Shown here in pieces: positions 1 through 24,759 of a stretch of 37,639 nucleotides of DNA; position 1 is the stretch's first letter, and each line of letters opens with the position of its first letter. A program made the translations under genes and the position numbers. Source of the stretch: an uncultured Lentisphaeria bacterium (GTDB taxonomy: Bacteria; Verrucomicrobiota; Lentisphaeria; Victivallales; Victivallaceae); assembly GCA_903840185.1 (NCBI GenBank), contig CAIMFA010000686.1, positions 1 through 37,639 of the forward strand, given 5' to 3'. The notes below the pieces were generated by a model, which searched no databases, was not told where the DNA came from, and saw only the letters and a list, made by a program, of their open reading frames with translations.

Positions 1-235
1 AAAATTGATTGCGAAGATTTTGAGAATTGGTTCGTATTCTGAGAGGCTGCCGATACCGGGGTATCGAAGGCCTCGAAGAGTGCGAATCCAAACTCGAAAG
101 ATCGCAACCGCTTTGCGGCGAGCGTCTTGCGGCCGTATTTTTCCGTTCCTTCTTCAGGCGATATTCATATCGCCAATCAGTCGGATCGAAAAAATCCAAT
201 CCACAATCCTGCGCGTCTATTCTTAAATTTTCAGC
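1..235 (+). repeat. Window-truncated second, diverged copy of the structured element at 22211..22482
   Basis: Blocks collinear with the 22211..22482 element: gattgcg (7-13 vs 22241-22247); stem-loop gaggctg-cgatacc-(loop)-ggtatcg (41-75 vs 22273-22310); ctcg.a.ag..cg.atcc (72-89 vs 22307-22324); cgcaaccg (103-110 vs 22338-22345); palindrome ggcgatattcatatcgcc (167-184 vs cccgatattcatatcggg 22392-22409). Hairpin stems differ by compensatory changes. The left end is cut by the window edge. Strand is tentative, based on G.U wobbles. Confidence 0.5.
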
Positions 236-423
236 TGTGCAGAGTATGTACAGTTGAAAAAATAATGATACATTATTTTTCCGATTTTTCAAGTATAAAA
301 TTCGCTGGAAGTAACAGTTTTGTAAAAAGATTTTACGCTTTATTTCAAAAATTACATTTTTGAAATAAAATATCGGGATTTTTATCTTCTGTCGTTTTTT
401 ATTTCCGGATTGGCGGCAGTTCT

Positions 424-4723: not shown

Positions 4724-4982
4724 ATAAATCTCTCCGATCTAAACCCGTCCGCACCGACGGGAATTAAAGACAATAAAACAGGATGAGTATTATACCTCGG
4801 AAATCTCACGATTTCAATGACAAATCTGCCGTTATGGCTATTGAATTTCGGGAAAAAAGCATTTCTATTTCTGAGTAATATTCGAAATCAGACGCTATAA
4901 AAAGACTTGCCGGATACAGGATAGTTGTTTCAAATCATCAATAGCCGGACATGAAAAACCGTATCTTTTTATGTGCGTATAC

Positions 4983-5010
4983 TTGTAAATCTGCCAAAAG
5001 ACAGTATCTT
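4983..5010 (+). promoter_or_regulatory. Candidate sigma70-type promoter for tRNA-Val
   Basis: TTGTAA (4983-4988), a 16-nt spacer, then TATCTT (5005-5010), about 28 nt upstream of the mature tRNA 5' end. Pattern match only. Confidence 0.25.
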
Positions 5011-5037
5011 TTGCATCTGGTTTAAACAGTTTCATCC

Positions 5038-5114
5038 GGGCGATTAGCTCAGTTGGCTAGAGCACTTGGTTTACACCCAAGGTGTCGGGGGTTCGAGTCC
5101 CTCATCGCCCACCA
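5038..5114 (+). tRNA. tRNA-Val (anticodon TAC), CCA encoded
   Basis: Hand-folded cloverleaf: acceptor GGGCGAT/ATCGCCC, D arm GCTC-AGTTGGCTA-GAGC, anticodon arm CTTGG-TTTACAC-CCAAG, variable GTGTC, T arm GGGGG-TTCGAGT-CCCTC, discriminator A plus CCA. 77 nt. Confidence 0.93.
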
Positions 5115-5326
5115 TTTCCATCCTCAAGACAGATTCAGCAAATTTATAAAAATTGCTCTTAGTTGCGCAGTTTTAACACATTTTATTTTGCGAGGACTGA
5201 GCTATAGCCAACTAAAAAAATATGTCCATAAAACTATTTGACTGGTAAAGTTTTGCTGAAACTACTTGAGCAACAGAACCCCGTTCACTCTATCCATGCT
5301 TTTTGCCGCTAAGATATAATGAATAA

Positions 5327-5749
5327 TCAATTTCGTTTCGACTCAGTTATCGAGAGACCGCGCTTATTGATAGAAATACGTACAATGTTGTTAATTAAAG
5401 TGTCTTTCTGATAGAATCGCTTGGTTAATCGGATACCTATTGTGTCCCCGCCGACTTTTTCATTACCGACTTCATAGGTTAAAGAAATGGAGGATAAAGG
5501 ATAACCGTTAAGTAGTTTAAGCTGGTCTTCATTAAGTTTATATTCCGTTCCATCAATTTTGATTAAAAACTTATCAAACTCAAATTGCCGGTTTTGGCTT
5601 GCAATAACTTTAACATCCTTATTCTCACCAGGAGTTTTAAGACCAATTGTAACCGACTGCCAACCTAAAAAATCTATCTCGGAAGAAAATACCTGAACAG
5701 TAGAAAGGACGATACATGCAAAAATATAAAACGATACCCATGTTTTCAT
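5327..5749 (-). CDS. Small secreted hypothetical protein
   Basis: The ORF-track entry is 5327..5764. The internal ATG at 5749 (MKTWVSFYIFACIVLSTVQVFS) is preceded by GGAGGT at about 8 nt and gives a clean signal peptide. I recognise no family. Confidence 0.6.
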   Translation of the reverse strand: MKTWVSFYIFACIVLSTVQVFSSEIDFLGWQSVTIGLKTPGENKDVKVIASQNRQFEFDKFLIKIDGTEYKLNEDQLKLLNGYPLSSISLTYEVGNEKVGGDTIGIRLTKRFYQKDTLINNIVRISINKRGLSITESKRN

Positions 5750-5955
5750 AGAAGCAACCTCCATAATTACAGTAAAGATACTGTCCGGACAGAATAATTC
5801 AATCCTTAAAACATAACGGGTATAGAGTCAATACTCGCCGCAGCTTTATCTTGACTTTACATTTATCTATTCTGACTCAAATATGACAGCGTTGATTTTA
5901 TTCATTGCTTGTGTATTATTTAGTCAAAGTAGAGTAGCTTAAATAAATCATCTTT

Positions 5956-21066: not shown

Positions 21067-22185
21067 TTATACGCCGAAGCTGATGCCGGTTTCCCGGGCG
21101 CTTTTAATCCAGGGGTGGTCTTGAGGAACCAGTTTAAGTTTTCCTGCGACCTCTTCAATCGGAACCGGCTCAATGTCCTGCCCTTTGGAGGCGACCATGT
21201 AGCCGAATTGTCTTTTCCTGATCAGGTCAACACAGGCATTGCCGAGTTTGGTTGCCAGTATGCGGTCGGAAGGGGAAGGTTTGCCGCCGCGCTGGAGGTA
21301 ACCGAGGATCGTGACGCGGGTTTCCTGACCGGTGAGTTCTTCCAGTTTCTGGGCGATCCGCAGCGTATTGCCGGTGCGCGCCAGCCAGAGGTTCTCAAGT
21401 TCGATTTTGGATTTTTCCTTGTCTTTTTTGGAAGTAGCTTTCTCTTTTCTTGCCGCGGCCTGGGCAAAGAGCAGGGCTTCAGCTTTGGAAACCGCGCCTT
21501 CGGCCACCGGAACAATCGAGAAGCGTTTTCCTTCTCTGGAGCGCTGGAGAATGGCGTTGGCGACATTATTGATGTCGTAAGGCAGTTCCGGAATTAAAAT
21601 AACATCCGCGCCGCCGGCGAGTCCGGCGCCGAGGGTCAACCATCCGGCGCGATGTCCCATGATCTCCACCAGCATGATCCGTTTGTGGCTGCTGGCGGTG
21701 GAATGCAGGCTGTCAATTGCATCGGTGGCAATCCGCAGCGCGGTGTCAAAGCCGATCGAGTTATCTGTACACGCGATATCATTGTCAATAGTTTTGGGGA
21801 TCGTAATGATGTTGAGCCCTTTTTCTTTCAACTTTAAAGCGCTCTTATGGGTGCCGCCGCCGCCGATGCAGATCAGGGCGTCAAGCTGATGTTTCTTGTA
21901 ATTTTCGACAATGACATCGGTCATGTCCATGATGTTTTTCCCCACCGGCATTTTTTGCGGTTTGGTGCGGCTGGTGCCGAGGACGGTGCCGCCGGCAGTC
22001 AGGATGCCGGAGAGGTCATCATTATTCAGATGCATTGTTTTATCATAAACCAGGCCTTCGAAGCCGTCTCTGAATCCCAGCAGTTGAATATTGTAATGCA
22101 GCAGGCTTTTGCCGACCGCCCTGATGGCGGCATTAAGTCCGGGGCTGTCGCCGCCGGCAGTCAGAATTCCAATACATTTAGCCAT
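21067..22185 (-). CDS. pfk: 6-phosphofructokinase (phosphoryl donor ATP or PPi, unresolved)
   Basis: 372 aa with the PFK motifs [39 protein letters not shown] and LGYLQRGG. Confidence 0.9.
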
Positions 22186-22210
22186 ATTTTATACCATAAG
22201 TTGATTGTTA

Positions 22211-22482
22211 ATACCGAATCGCAATCTTAAAGCTAGTAAGGATTGCGGATTCCGTCTTTGCCGGGATGGGCTGGACGAGGCTGGCGCTACCAGGGTAGCG
22301 ACTGAACTCGTACAGCACGTATCCGGCATGGCGGAAACGCAACCGTTTCGCGGCAAGGCCCTTTTGCGTTTATTTGAAAACGGCTCCATCCCCCGATATT
22401 CATATCGGGCTTCCGTCACTGTTCCCAAATAATTCTCAAAATTGCTCTTGTCGTTACTGGCTTTAAGATTGCGAATCGGTAT
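22211..22482 (+). ncRNA. Unclassified highly structured element (candidate ncRNA, or MITE-like inverted-repeat element)
   Basis: A 23-nt terminal inverted repeat (22211-22233 vs 22460-22482, one A.A mismatch) encloses several hand-foldable helices. A diverged paralogue at 1..235 shows compensatory stem changes. Strand is tentative. No signature of RNase P, tmRNA, SRP or a common riboswitch was recognised. Confidence 0.45.
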
Positions 22483-22545
22483 AAAGATAATGCTTAAGAA
22501 TATAATCCGTTTACAGCAAAATCAAAAGCGCCGGCTTCACAAACT

Positions 22546-24708
22546 TTAAATTTCTTGAGGACGGGAGAATACTTTGAGTTTCTTTATCTCTTCACGCCGC
22601 TGTCTGGACTTGTCGTAAATTTCCTGGAAAAGCTGATAAGTGCGGAACTGACTGGCGGAATTGTCTTTGACTTTATTGAATGTCCGGGAATAGGCGCCGG
22701 TCGGCAGCATGTGCCGTGATTTGCGCTTATCCTTAAGCTGAATCTCCAGTGTCTGCCGGATGACTTTCCTGACGCTTTCCTTTTCCACTGGAAACATGAT
22801 CTCAATCCGGTGATCCAGGTTTCTGGGCATCCAGTCGGCGCTGGAGAGATAATATTCCTCTTCGCCGCAATTCCTGAAGTAGAAAACCCGGCTGTGTTCA
22901 AGATAGCGGTCAACAATGCTGATGACATTGATATTACTGGTGCCGATGCCGGGCTTCAGACAGCAGATGCCGCGCACGATCAAGTCAATTTTAACCCCGG
23001 CCATCGCCGCGCGATAGAGGTGCGCAATGATTTCCGGGTCAACCAGCGAATTCATTTTGGCGATGATGCGTCCCGGATTGTTTTTAGTCGAAATTCTGGC
23101 TTCACGGTCAATCAACTCGATGAATTTCTCTCTCAGGGAGAACGGCGCCACCGCGATCCTTTTCCAGGTGTTCAGCGGCGAAGAATAGCCGGTCATGACG
23201 TTGAACAGCGAAGATACTTCCAGGCAGATTTCCGGGTCGCACATGAACATCCCGATATCGGTATACAGCTTTGCGGTCTTGTCGTTGTAGTTGCCGGTTG
23301 CCAGATGGACATAACGTTTAATCCGCATATCCTTGTTGCGCTTGACGATCAGCAGCGCCTTGCAGTGTATCTTGAATCCTGCGATACCGTAGATAACGTG
23401 CGCGCCGGATTCTTCAAGTTTTACCGCCCAGTTAATATTATTGTTTTCGTCAAACCGGGCCTTTAATTCCAGAATAACTGTGACCTGCTTGCCGTTTTCA
23501 GCGGCGCGCTGCAGTGCCTTGATTACCGGGGAGTCACCGCTGACCCGGTAAAGCGTCTGCTTGATCGCCAGCACATCCGGATCTTCCGCCGCTTCATTCA
23601 GCAGTTTGACTACCGGGTCAAACCCCTGGAAAGGCACCGCGTCCATTACACATTCCTCGCGGTCAATCACGCTGAACATCGAACCGCCGCCGGTAAATTC
23701 CGGAACCGGCAACGGCGGCCACGGCTGGTTCATCAGGTCGGGACGGTCAACCTTGCCGATAAACTCAAAAAAAGCGGCGGGATTAAGCGGCATCGGCACA
23801 TTATATTTTAAATCATCATCCAGCTGGAATTGTTCCATCAGCCATTCCGCCAGCTTGCCGCGGCTGCCCTTGGGCAGTTCGAGCCGGATCGGCTCCCGGC
23901 TCTTGCGGTGAAGCAGTTCCTTTTTCATGTACTGCAGAAGGTCGGCAACTCCTTCCTCGTCCAGCGAAAAATCCATATCGCGGGTAATCCGGAAAGGAAT
24001 GATTTCGTGTATTTTGCAGTTGCTGAACAGGAACTGGATATGCTCCATGATCAAATCTTCCAGCAGCACATACTGCTGCTTGTTTTTGGGCGAGAAACTG
24101 AGCCGGATAAAGCGCGGCAGCAGTTGCGGGACTTCGACGAATGCATGCAGCACTTTGCCGGAATCATCACGGCTCAGGCTGACGGCGATTTCAATTGCCC
24201 CGCTGTTGAGAATCGGAAACGGATGGCTGGGGTCAACCGCGAACGGAGTAAGCACCGGAAACACCTGATTGAGGAAGTATTCCTTCAGAAAAACCCGTTG
24301 TTCGCTGGATAACTGTTCAGGATTGACGAGTTGAATTCCTTTCTCCTCCAGCGCCGGCATGATTTCCTGCAGCAAATAACGGTATTTGCGCTCGATCAGC
24401 CCCTTAAGTCTTTTCTTTATCGCTTTGATTTGCGCCGCCGGTTCCAGTCCGGAACAATCGGTCTGCAATGTTTTGGAACTTAACAACTGCCGCAGCCCGG
24501 CAACCCTGATCATGAAAAATTCATCAAGATTGTTGCTGAATATGGCGATGAACTTGAGTCTTTCCAGCAGCGGGTTGCCGACATCGCCGGCCTCGTCCAG
24601 CACCCTGGCATTAAATTCTAGCCAGCTCAATTCGCGGGAAACAAAATATTTTTTATCGAGAAAACCACTCACTGCGCTAATACTCCTGAAATTTGCTATC
24701 CTCTGCAC
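22546..24708 (-). CDS. ppk1: Polyphosphate kinase 1
   Basis: 720-aa ORF starting at a GTG. The likely true start is the GTG at 24672 (MSGFLDKKYFVSRELSWLEFN), with AGGAGT about 10 nt upstream. PPK1 hallmarks: RELSWLEFNARVLDEA, phosphohistidine region GFKIHCKALLIV, and C-terminal LEHSRVFYF. Confidence 0.93.
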   Translation of the reverse strand: MQRIANFRSISAVSGFLDKKYFVSRELSWLEFNARVLDEAGDVGNPLLERLKFIAIFSNNLDEFFMIRVAGLRQLLSSKTLQTDCSGLEPAAQIKAIKKRLKGLIERKYRYLLQEIMPALEEKGIQLVNPEQLSSEQRVFLKEYFLNQVFPVLTPFAVDPSHPFPILNSGAIEIAVSLSRDDSGKVLHAFVEVPQLLPRFIRLSFSPKNKQQYVLLEDLIMEHIQFLFSNCKIHEIIPFRITRDMDFSLDEEGVADLLQYMKKELLHRKSREPIRLELPKGSRGKLAEWLMEQFQLDDDLKYNVPMPLNPAAFFEFIGKVDRPDLMNQPWPPLPVPEFTGGGSMFSVIDREECVMDAVPFQGFDPVVKLLNEAAEDPDVLAIKQTLYRVSGDSPVIKALQRAAENGKQVTVILELKARFDENNNINWAVKLEESGAHVIYGIAGFKIHCKALLIVKRNKDMRIKRYVHLATGNYNDKTAKLYTDIGMFMCDPEICLEVSSLFNVMTGYSSPLNTWKRIAVAPFSLREKFIELIDREARISTKNNPGRIIAKMNSLVDPEIIAHLYRAAMAGVKIDLIVRGICCLKPGIGTSNINVISIVDRYLEHSRVFYFRNCGEEEYYLSSADWMPRNLDHRIEIMFPVEKESVRKVIRQTLEIQLKDKRKSRHMLPTGAYSRTFNKVKDNSASQFRTYQLFQEIYDKSRQRREEIKKLKVFSRPQEI

Positions 24709-24759
24709 GGCTGAAAATTAAACTATAGATGAATTTTCAACCGCGCAAAGTATATATTG

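Follow-up and report, generated by a model that had tools for sequence, protein, structure and literature searches.

A spacer of 360 nt separates ppk1 from pfk in a contig of an uncultured Lentisphaeria bacterium, and most of its length is occupied by a segment whose two ends are complementary and whose interior can form several further helices. The locus raises the question of whether this segment is a structured RNA, a regulatory leader of pfk or a mobile element, all of which had been named as candidates in an initial annotation of the 37,639-nt stretch of DNA analysed here (the window). We conclude, with a probability of roughly 0.9, that positions 22212–22481 are a non-autonomous DNA transposon (MITE) of an undescribed family confined to Victivallales (Lentisphaerota), and that this element was inserted in a TTA, which was duplicated. 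The readings of 22211–22482 as a pfk leader, a non-coding RNA (ncRNA) or a switch are not supported.

The genes on either side of the element, pfk (21067–22185) and ppk1 (22546–24708), both lie on the minus strand, and the spacer between them contains just mechanical open reading frames (ORFs) of 75–79 aa, on both strands. The first observation made at this site, that the arms 22211–22233 and 22460–22482 match at 22 of 23 positions, is borne out: the window holds exactly two occurrences of the 23-nt arm, on opposite strands, with 0 and 1 mismatch, while the number expected from shuffles is 0. A repeat search extends the inverted repeat, the sole long close-range one in the window, to 35 nt with 89% complementarity (22208–22242 with 22451–22485), and detects two more inverted repeats in the element, AAACGCAA/TTGCGTTT and CCCGATAT/ATATCGGG.

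The boundaries of the element were set by filled/empty comparison. The gene order ppx-ppk1-pfk is kept in three relatives, L227, L225 and L226, whose pfk genes are 96%, 94% and 78% identical to that of the window; their ppk1-pfk spacers measure 87, 75 and 152 nt, respectively, against 360 nt here. When aligned, the empty site of L227 and L225 reads ATC-TTA-ACAATC and the filled site of the window reads ATC-TTA-[TACCG...CGGTA]-TTA-ACAATC. Since a single TTA is present in the empty site and TTA stands on both sides when the site is filled, the element comprises 22212–22481 and is accompanied by a 3-bp duplication. Its absence from the same site in close relatives identifies it as an insertion; it is neither a regulator devoted to pfk nor a novel gene for an RNA. 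The features of the locus are as follows, where 'sense' in the family alignment corresponds to the minus strand of the window:

22212–22481, minus strand: subfamily-A MITE copy, 270 bp, TACCG...CGGTA, non-coding.
22209–22211: target-site duplication on the pfk side, TAA on the plus strand, from the empty sites of L227 and L225.
22482–22484: target-site duplication on the ppk1 side, TAA on the plus strand and TTA on the minus strand, from the same empty sites.
22212–22242: pfk-proximal arm of the terminal inverted repeat (TIR), preserved in all A copies and invariably complementary to the opposite arm.
22451–22481: ppk1-proximal arm of the TIR, carrying a single T.T/A.A mismatch.
22240–22344: long internal hairpin with apex cgctacc/ggtagcg, consensus helices 6–10, found in the minimum free energy (MFE) fold and with compensatory changes in helices 7–10.
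22350–22449: long internal hairpin with apex CCCGATAT-GA-ATATCGGG, consensus helices 3–5, found in the MFE fold.

The window also contains other copies of the same element. The claim that a second, diverged copy lies at the window start proved correct, and a third copy, reduced to little more than its ends, is present between ppx and ppk1, giving three family copies in 37.6 kb:

1–246, minus strand: subfamily-B copy, collinear and clipped by the window start, nhmmer E 2e-75.
24699–24752, plus strand: internally deleted B copy, consisting of the 5′ 38 nt and the 3′ 22 nt (54 bp in total), from alignment to B copies.

The complete form of the clipped copy is found on a sister contig (L005:9304–9571). 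It lies 61 nt upstream of the citrate synthase gene gltA, in the same orientation to the gene as the pfk copy, and its closing stem is equal in length to that of the A copy but wholly different in sequence. The gltA-upstream insertion is also present in another MAG species (L148:5729–5999), at the same distance from a gltA that is 95% identical; this insertion, being common to two MAG species, is older than that at pfk. The 54-bp mini-copy is flanked by TA at 24697–24698 and 24753–24754 and is missing from L227 and L225, where one TA is present at the site. Together with the pfk-spacer copy, it indicates that the ppx-ppk1-pfk operon has been hit by two independent insertions. We note that the GTG start of the mechanical ppk1 ORF (24708) falls within the mini-copy, and that the start conserved in relatives is GTG 24672 (708 aa), in agreement with the gene call of L001.

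To collect the family, a pattern of two core motifs common to both larger window copies was scanned over metagenomes and GTDB genomes. More than 120 stretches were found among the metagenome matches listed, 65 of those with the exact 69-nt spacing of the window copies, and the GTDB genomes yielded at least 97. Almost all of the matches with 69-nt spacing listed in genomes belong to Lentisphaerota/Victivallales/Victivallaceae MAGs, and the highest counts for single MAGs among the genome matches listed are at least 16 and at least 15. An HMM built from complete copies and searched with nhmmer gave 261 matches, including 97 full-length ones, in the 1.4 Mb of loci that were fetched; the pfk-spacer element is matched over its full length with an E value of 7e-71 and is 89–96% identical to 11 other A copies. 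Many family matches lie at contig ends, as is typical of repeats that interrupt assembly. The 84 complete copies are similar up to sharp limits at [A/G]TAC...GTA[T/C], and their flanks are unrelated. Copies measure 269–275 bp, and indels of 1–2 nt between them break any reading frame. Three subfamilies can be told apart by their ends: A, to which the pfk copy belongs (ATACCGATTCGCAATCTTAAAGC); B, to which the gltA copy belongs (ATACTCTGCACGGCTGAAAATTTAA, with several variants); and G (GTACTCTGTAAAGCTAAAAATTT). The identity between A and B is approximately 50%. The mismatch in the arms of the pfk copy is common to most A copies (column pair 8/282, UU:10), and was thus inherited from the founder of the subfamily.

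Four independent comparisons demonstrate that the family has moved, namely the two filled/empty sites of the ppx-ppk1-pfk operon described above and two further cases. An A copy is present in L028 and missing in L048, where the flanks are 96.7% identical. In L083, a B copy is nested in the terminal repeat of another copy at the junction ...AAATT-TA-[TAC...GTA]-TA-ACATAG, with duplication of TA; when the flanks are rejoined, they match intact copies at 99%. A family restricted to copies at orthologous positions is contradicted by this filled/empty polymorphism. The flanks of further copies carry the same signature: 7 of 13 other A copies have identical 3-nt TNA (TTA, TAA or TCA) at their two ends, 45 of 59 B copies are bordered by TA at each end, and 6 of 10 G copies show cTA...TAg. 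The possibility that every copy duplicates TA was considered and rejected, as filled/empty alignment gave 3 bp (TNA) for subfamily A. In a separate instance, a B copy in L097 (360–2245) is split by an insertion of about 1.6 kb with a 373-aa IS1380-like DDE transposase, so other insertion sequences can in turn insert into the MITE.

The element thus combines TIRs at sharp ends, small size, lack of coding capacity, a target-site duplication, many dispersed copies and presence/absence polymorphism, which are the defining properties of a MITE. That the element might be MITE-like was the last of the candidates put forward initially, and it is the one confirmed by the dozens of copies, sharp ends, target-site duplications, nested insertion and filled/empty pairs. 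The same data bear on a different kind of mobility, in which a Y1 (HUH) transposase mobilises a palindrome of the REP/REPIN or IS200/IS605 type in single-stranded form. REP/REPIN and IS200/IS605 elements do not duplicate their target site, and in place of long TIRs they have subterminal hairpins. The extensive self-complementarity of both strands and the multi-copy, intergenic distribution of the family would suit such an origin, but TA or TNA duplications are seen in three filled/empty comparisons and in the nested insertion, and the family ends are true inverted repeats; we regard this origin as scarcely credible.

The MFE of the element is −134.8 kcal/mol for the plus strand (z −9.1 against shuffles) and −123.8 kcal/mol for the minus strand (z −9.4), and the fold consists of a long closing stem that encloses two long hairpins, forming a three-way junction. 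The helices that had been paired by hand are all present as complementarities. Both MFE and family covariation back three of them, namely the closing stem, the cgctacc/ggtagcg hairpin together with the 10 bp that extend it, and the hairpin cccgata/tatcggg. The long-range ggatgg/ccatcc pairing and the aaacgcaa/ttgcgttt pairing fall outside the supported fold; instead, in consensus helix 6 of the family, GGTTGCG pairs with CGCAATC beside the 3′ arm.

Covariation was examined in 79 distinct copies using an RNAalifold consensus of 62 pairs. Compensatory double changes occur in 37 of the 62 pairs, in 415 cells where 95 are expected, many of them being single A-versus-B events inherited by 12–13 sequences; the pattern used for collection had also held the two anchor motifs constant. 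Pairing is retained in 95.6% of cells, against 85.0% when partners are shuffled and 37–45% when they are slid. The closing stem shows three to four pair types at several positions, and the changes in the 22350–22449 hairpin include GC↔CG exchanges in its apex stem. Apical hairpins have been swapped with pairing kept, from GATATGAATATC to GATGCCCGCATC in L107 (1351–1620), and from GCCGCAAAGCGG to CCCGCGCCTGCGGG in L144 (5183–5457) and L094 (808–1083), which carry CCCGCG..CGGG. The difference between the closing stems of A and B copies was rejected as an instance of RNA-stem covariation, each stem being the conserved TIR of its own subfamily. A structured fold, as proposed at the outset, is present in the element. 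Covariation of this strength indicates that selection acts on the multi-helix fold: the three-way fold is held by compensatory substitutions between subfamilies that are about 50% identical, and is not neutral. Most likely, it is selected because it benefits the propagation or persistence of the element. In defining what would count as a plain MITE, the initial annotation had listed numerous copies, target-site duplications and a lack of covariation; the first two are observed here, and the third is not, since covariation is strong.

A conserved fold upstream of a metabolic gene could instead point to a leader or riboswitch-like element of pfk and gltA, which senses a central-carbon metabolite and toggles between the closing stem and a local hairpin. 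In favour of this, the two larger copies in the window each stand immediately before a central-carbon gene and share one orientation to it, Iso_dh or Ldh_2 genes follow some of the other copies, and the fold covaries. The local pairing from which switch-like folds had been proposed is present in subfamily A, where the alternative hairpin reaches about −11 to −14 kcal/mol (mean −11.2 kcal/mol), but is missing in subfamily B (−3.6 kcal/mol). Its origin is a second CGCAATC that is present by chance in the A-type end, and with the pairing restricted to a single subfamily a switch is not supported. The orthologous ppx-ppk1-pfk clusters lack the element upstream of pfk genes that are 96%, 94% and 78% identical, and downstream genes elsewhere are varied, including an ArsP permease, a DNA methylase, a GFO/IDH/MocA oxidoreductase, a PLP enzyme and unknowns; ten downstream genes sampled have unrelated functions.

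The orientation of copies also argues against a leader. By crude ORF calls, copies fall into four orientation classes relative to their neighbours, namely 19 (+,+), 13 (−,+), 11 (+,−) and 7 (−,−), so that 11 of 50 lie between convergent genes and seven are antisense to both neighbours; the bias is weak (19 same-sense co-directional against 7 antisense, again by crude ORF calls). Folding energy favours the sense strand by 3.8 kcal/mol in subfamily B and the antisense strand by 6.5 kcal/mol in subfamily A, meaning that neither is consistently more stable and that there is no consistent RNA strand. The spacer contains no terminator-like or start-site-masking expression platform; a search of the pfk spacer found no terminator, and one promoter-like site (plus strand, 22463–22491) that is within chance. 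A cis-regulatory leader of pfk is accordingly very improbable.

The reading as a new structured ncRNA is likewise not supported. The absence of RNase P, tmRNA, SRP and riboswitch signatures, noted from the letters alone, holds against Rfam: searches with 4227 models (6S and Acido-Lenti-1 included), at gathering and at permissive (E ≤ 10) thresholds, gave no family match on the window, copy A or copy B other than a tRNA at 5038–5111, which is the sole Rfam match in the window. The best scores on copies A and B were chance-level, 13.0 and 13.8 bits (E 8–10), compared with gathering scores of 57–63. The likeness of the element to these RNAs is just that of a multi-helix fold of about 270 nt.

An observation of a different kind concerns the ends of B copies, which read outward as TTGAAT/TTAAAT-16 nt-TATA (L083:245–515, L204:5528–5798). 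A B end, the TA duplication and an AT-rich flank can together complete a sigma-70-like promoter, for which strict criteria are satisfied in 15 of 114 ends. This is a hint of an outward promoter at B ends.

As a MITE, the element encodes nothing, and a transposase acting in trans would be expected to bind the TIRs of approximately 25–35 bp. Groups IS1031, ISL2 and IS427 of the IS5 family make 2–3-bp TA or TNA duplications, and IS630 duplicates TA. Going by the duplications, 3-bp TNA for A and 2-bp TA for B and G would fit a DDE transposase, with the IS5 family (IS427/IS1031/ISL2 groups, PIF/Harbinger-like) as one candidate source and IS630/Tc1-mariner as another in the case of B and G. The strict TA duplication of IS630/Tc1-mariner is found only in B and G, the pfk-spacer copy having a 3-bp TTA (TNA); 2–3-bp duplications of the IS5-family type are found throughout, as TNA in A and TA in B and G.

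The terminal-repeat sequences by which a partner element would be recognised, as inverted pairs, are TACCGATTCGCAATCTTAAAG and TACTCTGCACGGCTGAAAAT. A search of the 1.4 Mb of fetched loci for exact-seed inverted repeats 700–3000 bp apart found no autonomous element with the same terminal repeats, and a scan of these loci for TA-flanked imperfect repeats found no element of IS length with family ends. No IS630-type motif was present in six-frame ORFs of the fetched loci, and viral contigs contained nothing that matched the B end. The repeats picked out in L060, L186 and L200 were dismissed as an autonomous partner, because they flank a LacI-type gene or ordinary genes, as was the repeat pair in L097, where a B copy is split by the IS1380-like insertion described above.

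The relationship between core and ends is an unusual aspect of the family. Between A and B the core is better conserved than the TIRs (53% versus 37%), although its apparent conservation is inflated by the collection pattern, which fixes two core anchor motifs, and the subfamilies differ in duplication length as well. This is the opposite of a simple decayed insertion sequence with conserved ends, and hints at a role for the core. One possibility is a mobile element with a functional core, such as an RNA or DNA module processed by RNase III or a structure needed in cis for transposition, which would have been captured by two transposase systems (one giving A its TNA ends, the other giving B and G their TA ends) and for which the fold would be the payload rather than a by-product. 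Pairing in 95.6% of cells despite sequence identity of about 50%, apices that can be replaced with pairing kept (L107, L144 and L094), the weak excess of same-sense orientations and the coexistence of A and B copies in the same genomes are in keeping with such an arrangement. The absence of a strand preference in folding energies and of any Rfam relative speaks against it, as do the anchor motifs and the 54-bp mini-copy, in which ends persist without a core. Overall, we consider capture of a functional core by two systems unlikely. The broader proposal, that the three-way-junction core is a functional module, either an RNA freed from host transcripts when RNase III cuts the long terminal stem or a DNA or RNA structure needed in cis for propagation, which has spread in Victivallales on at least two kinds of transposon end (TNA and TA), is a little more doubtful still; if it were true, insertions before pfk and gltA would rewire the expression of central-carbon genes.

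The preferred reading as a MITE allows for consequences at pfk of another sort. The near end of the element is 27 nt from the pfk ATG, and its two neighbouring genes are co-directional. A transcript that reaches pfk from upstream would therefore always contain the element, as a segment of about −124 kcal/mol with a near-perfect stem of 31 bp. By analogy with Correia and ERIC elements, this RNA may be cut by RNase III or may alter mRNA stability. Any such effect on pfk mRNA would be a side-effect of the insertion, not the action of a dedicated regulatory device.

The closest parallels are found among MITEs of other lineages. Stowaway (TA) and Tourist (TAA/TNA) MITEs of plants are derivatives of Tc1/mariner and PIF/Harbinger, respectively, and their bacterial counterparts derive from IS630 and IS5 (IS427/IS1031/ISL2). 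Their target duplications are matched here by B and G (TA) and by A (TNA), and they are also alike in size class, AT-rich targets and strong potential for secondary structure. The two plant classes are normally unrelated internally, whereas the TA- and TNA-type subfamilies described here have cores that are homologous and conserved in structure.

Correia elements (CREE/NEMIS) of Neisseria are likewise non-coding and intergenic, number dozens to hundreds of copies, and have TIRs of approximately 26 bp and, like subfamilies B and G, duplicate TA at the target. They are co-transcribed with neighbouring genes, and their paired TIRs give a long double-stranded RNA stem. These stems are cut by RNase III, and MITE transcripts typically form very stable stem-loops (PMC10969869). 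Correia elements differ in being simple hairpins of 100–155 bp with an IHF site, found only in Neisseria and without sequence similarity to the present family, which is 269–275 bp in length and has a three-way junction, several TIR variants and one TNA-duplicating subfamily. MITEs of the ERIC/IRU and QMITE type are also intergenic imperfect palindromes with very stable transcript folds (QMITE2 has 23–29-bp TIRs and a ΔG of about −113; PMC10969869), and can affect the stability of flanking mRNAs. Their hosts and sequences are different, ERIC is 127 bp long, and for the present family conservation of the fold has been quantified across subfamilies that are about 50% identical. A literature search found no paper on MITEs of Lentisphaerae or Victivallales, and the main text of a large MITE survey from 2024 does not mention the phylum.

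The MITE family described here is new but of an ordinary kind, and the conservation of its structure is unusually well documented. What sets it apart is that one structurally conserved core is carried on unrelated ends with different target duplications, which raises the question of what role the core plays. The family also offers a clean case of MITE secondary structure kept by compensatory change. The strong fold, covariation and lack of an Rfam match mimic a new riboswitch or ncRNA, yet the element is a transposon insertion, and a false positive is thereby removed. In addition, the analysis defines a high-copy repeat family of Lentisphaerota, with at least three subfamilies, that breaks MAG assemblies and marks strain-level polymorphism, and that could be used to mark the lineage or to point out mis-binned contigs. 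Some MAGs that were assigned to other phyla include short contigs with full or partial copies, namely L151 (Chloroflexota, 2.5 kb), L190 (Bacteroidales, 2.5 kb) and L172 (labelled Verrucomicrobia); for these, mis-binning of Victivallales contigs is more likely than horizontal spread, and the repeat could accordingly flag contamination.

Two further observations concern the arrangement of copies and the variability of the window. Copies form local clusters, with two A copies about 1 kb apart in L071, two B copies about 740 nt apart in L183 and six HMM matches within 8 kb in L144, which suggests insertion hot spots or local hopping. The tRNA gene at 5038–5111 adjoins an RND efflux operon, in a region of about 4724–5955. 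In the sister contigs L005 (1–4826) and L007, this tRNA site is occupied by genes for a tyrosine integrase and an AAA_25 protein and by a Fic-like gene, in place of which HEAT-repeat and other genes are found in the window and in L006; the tRNA-adjacent region looks like a strain-variable integrative island.
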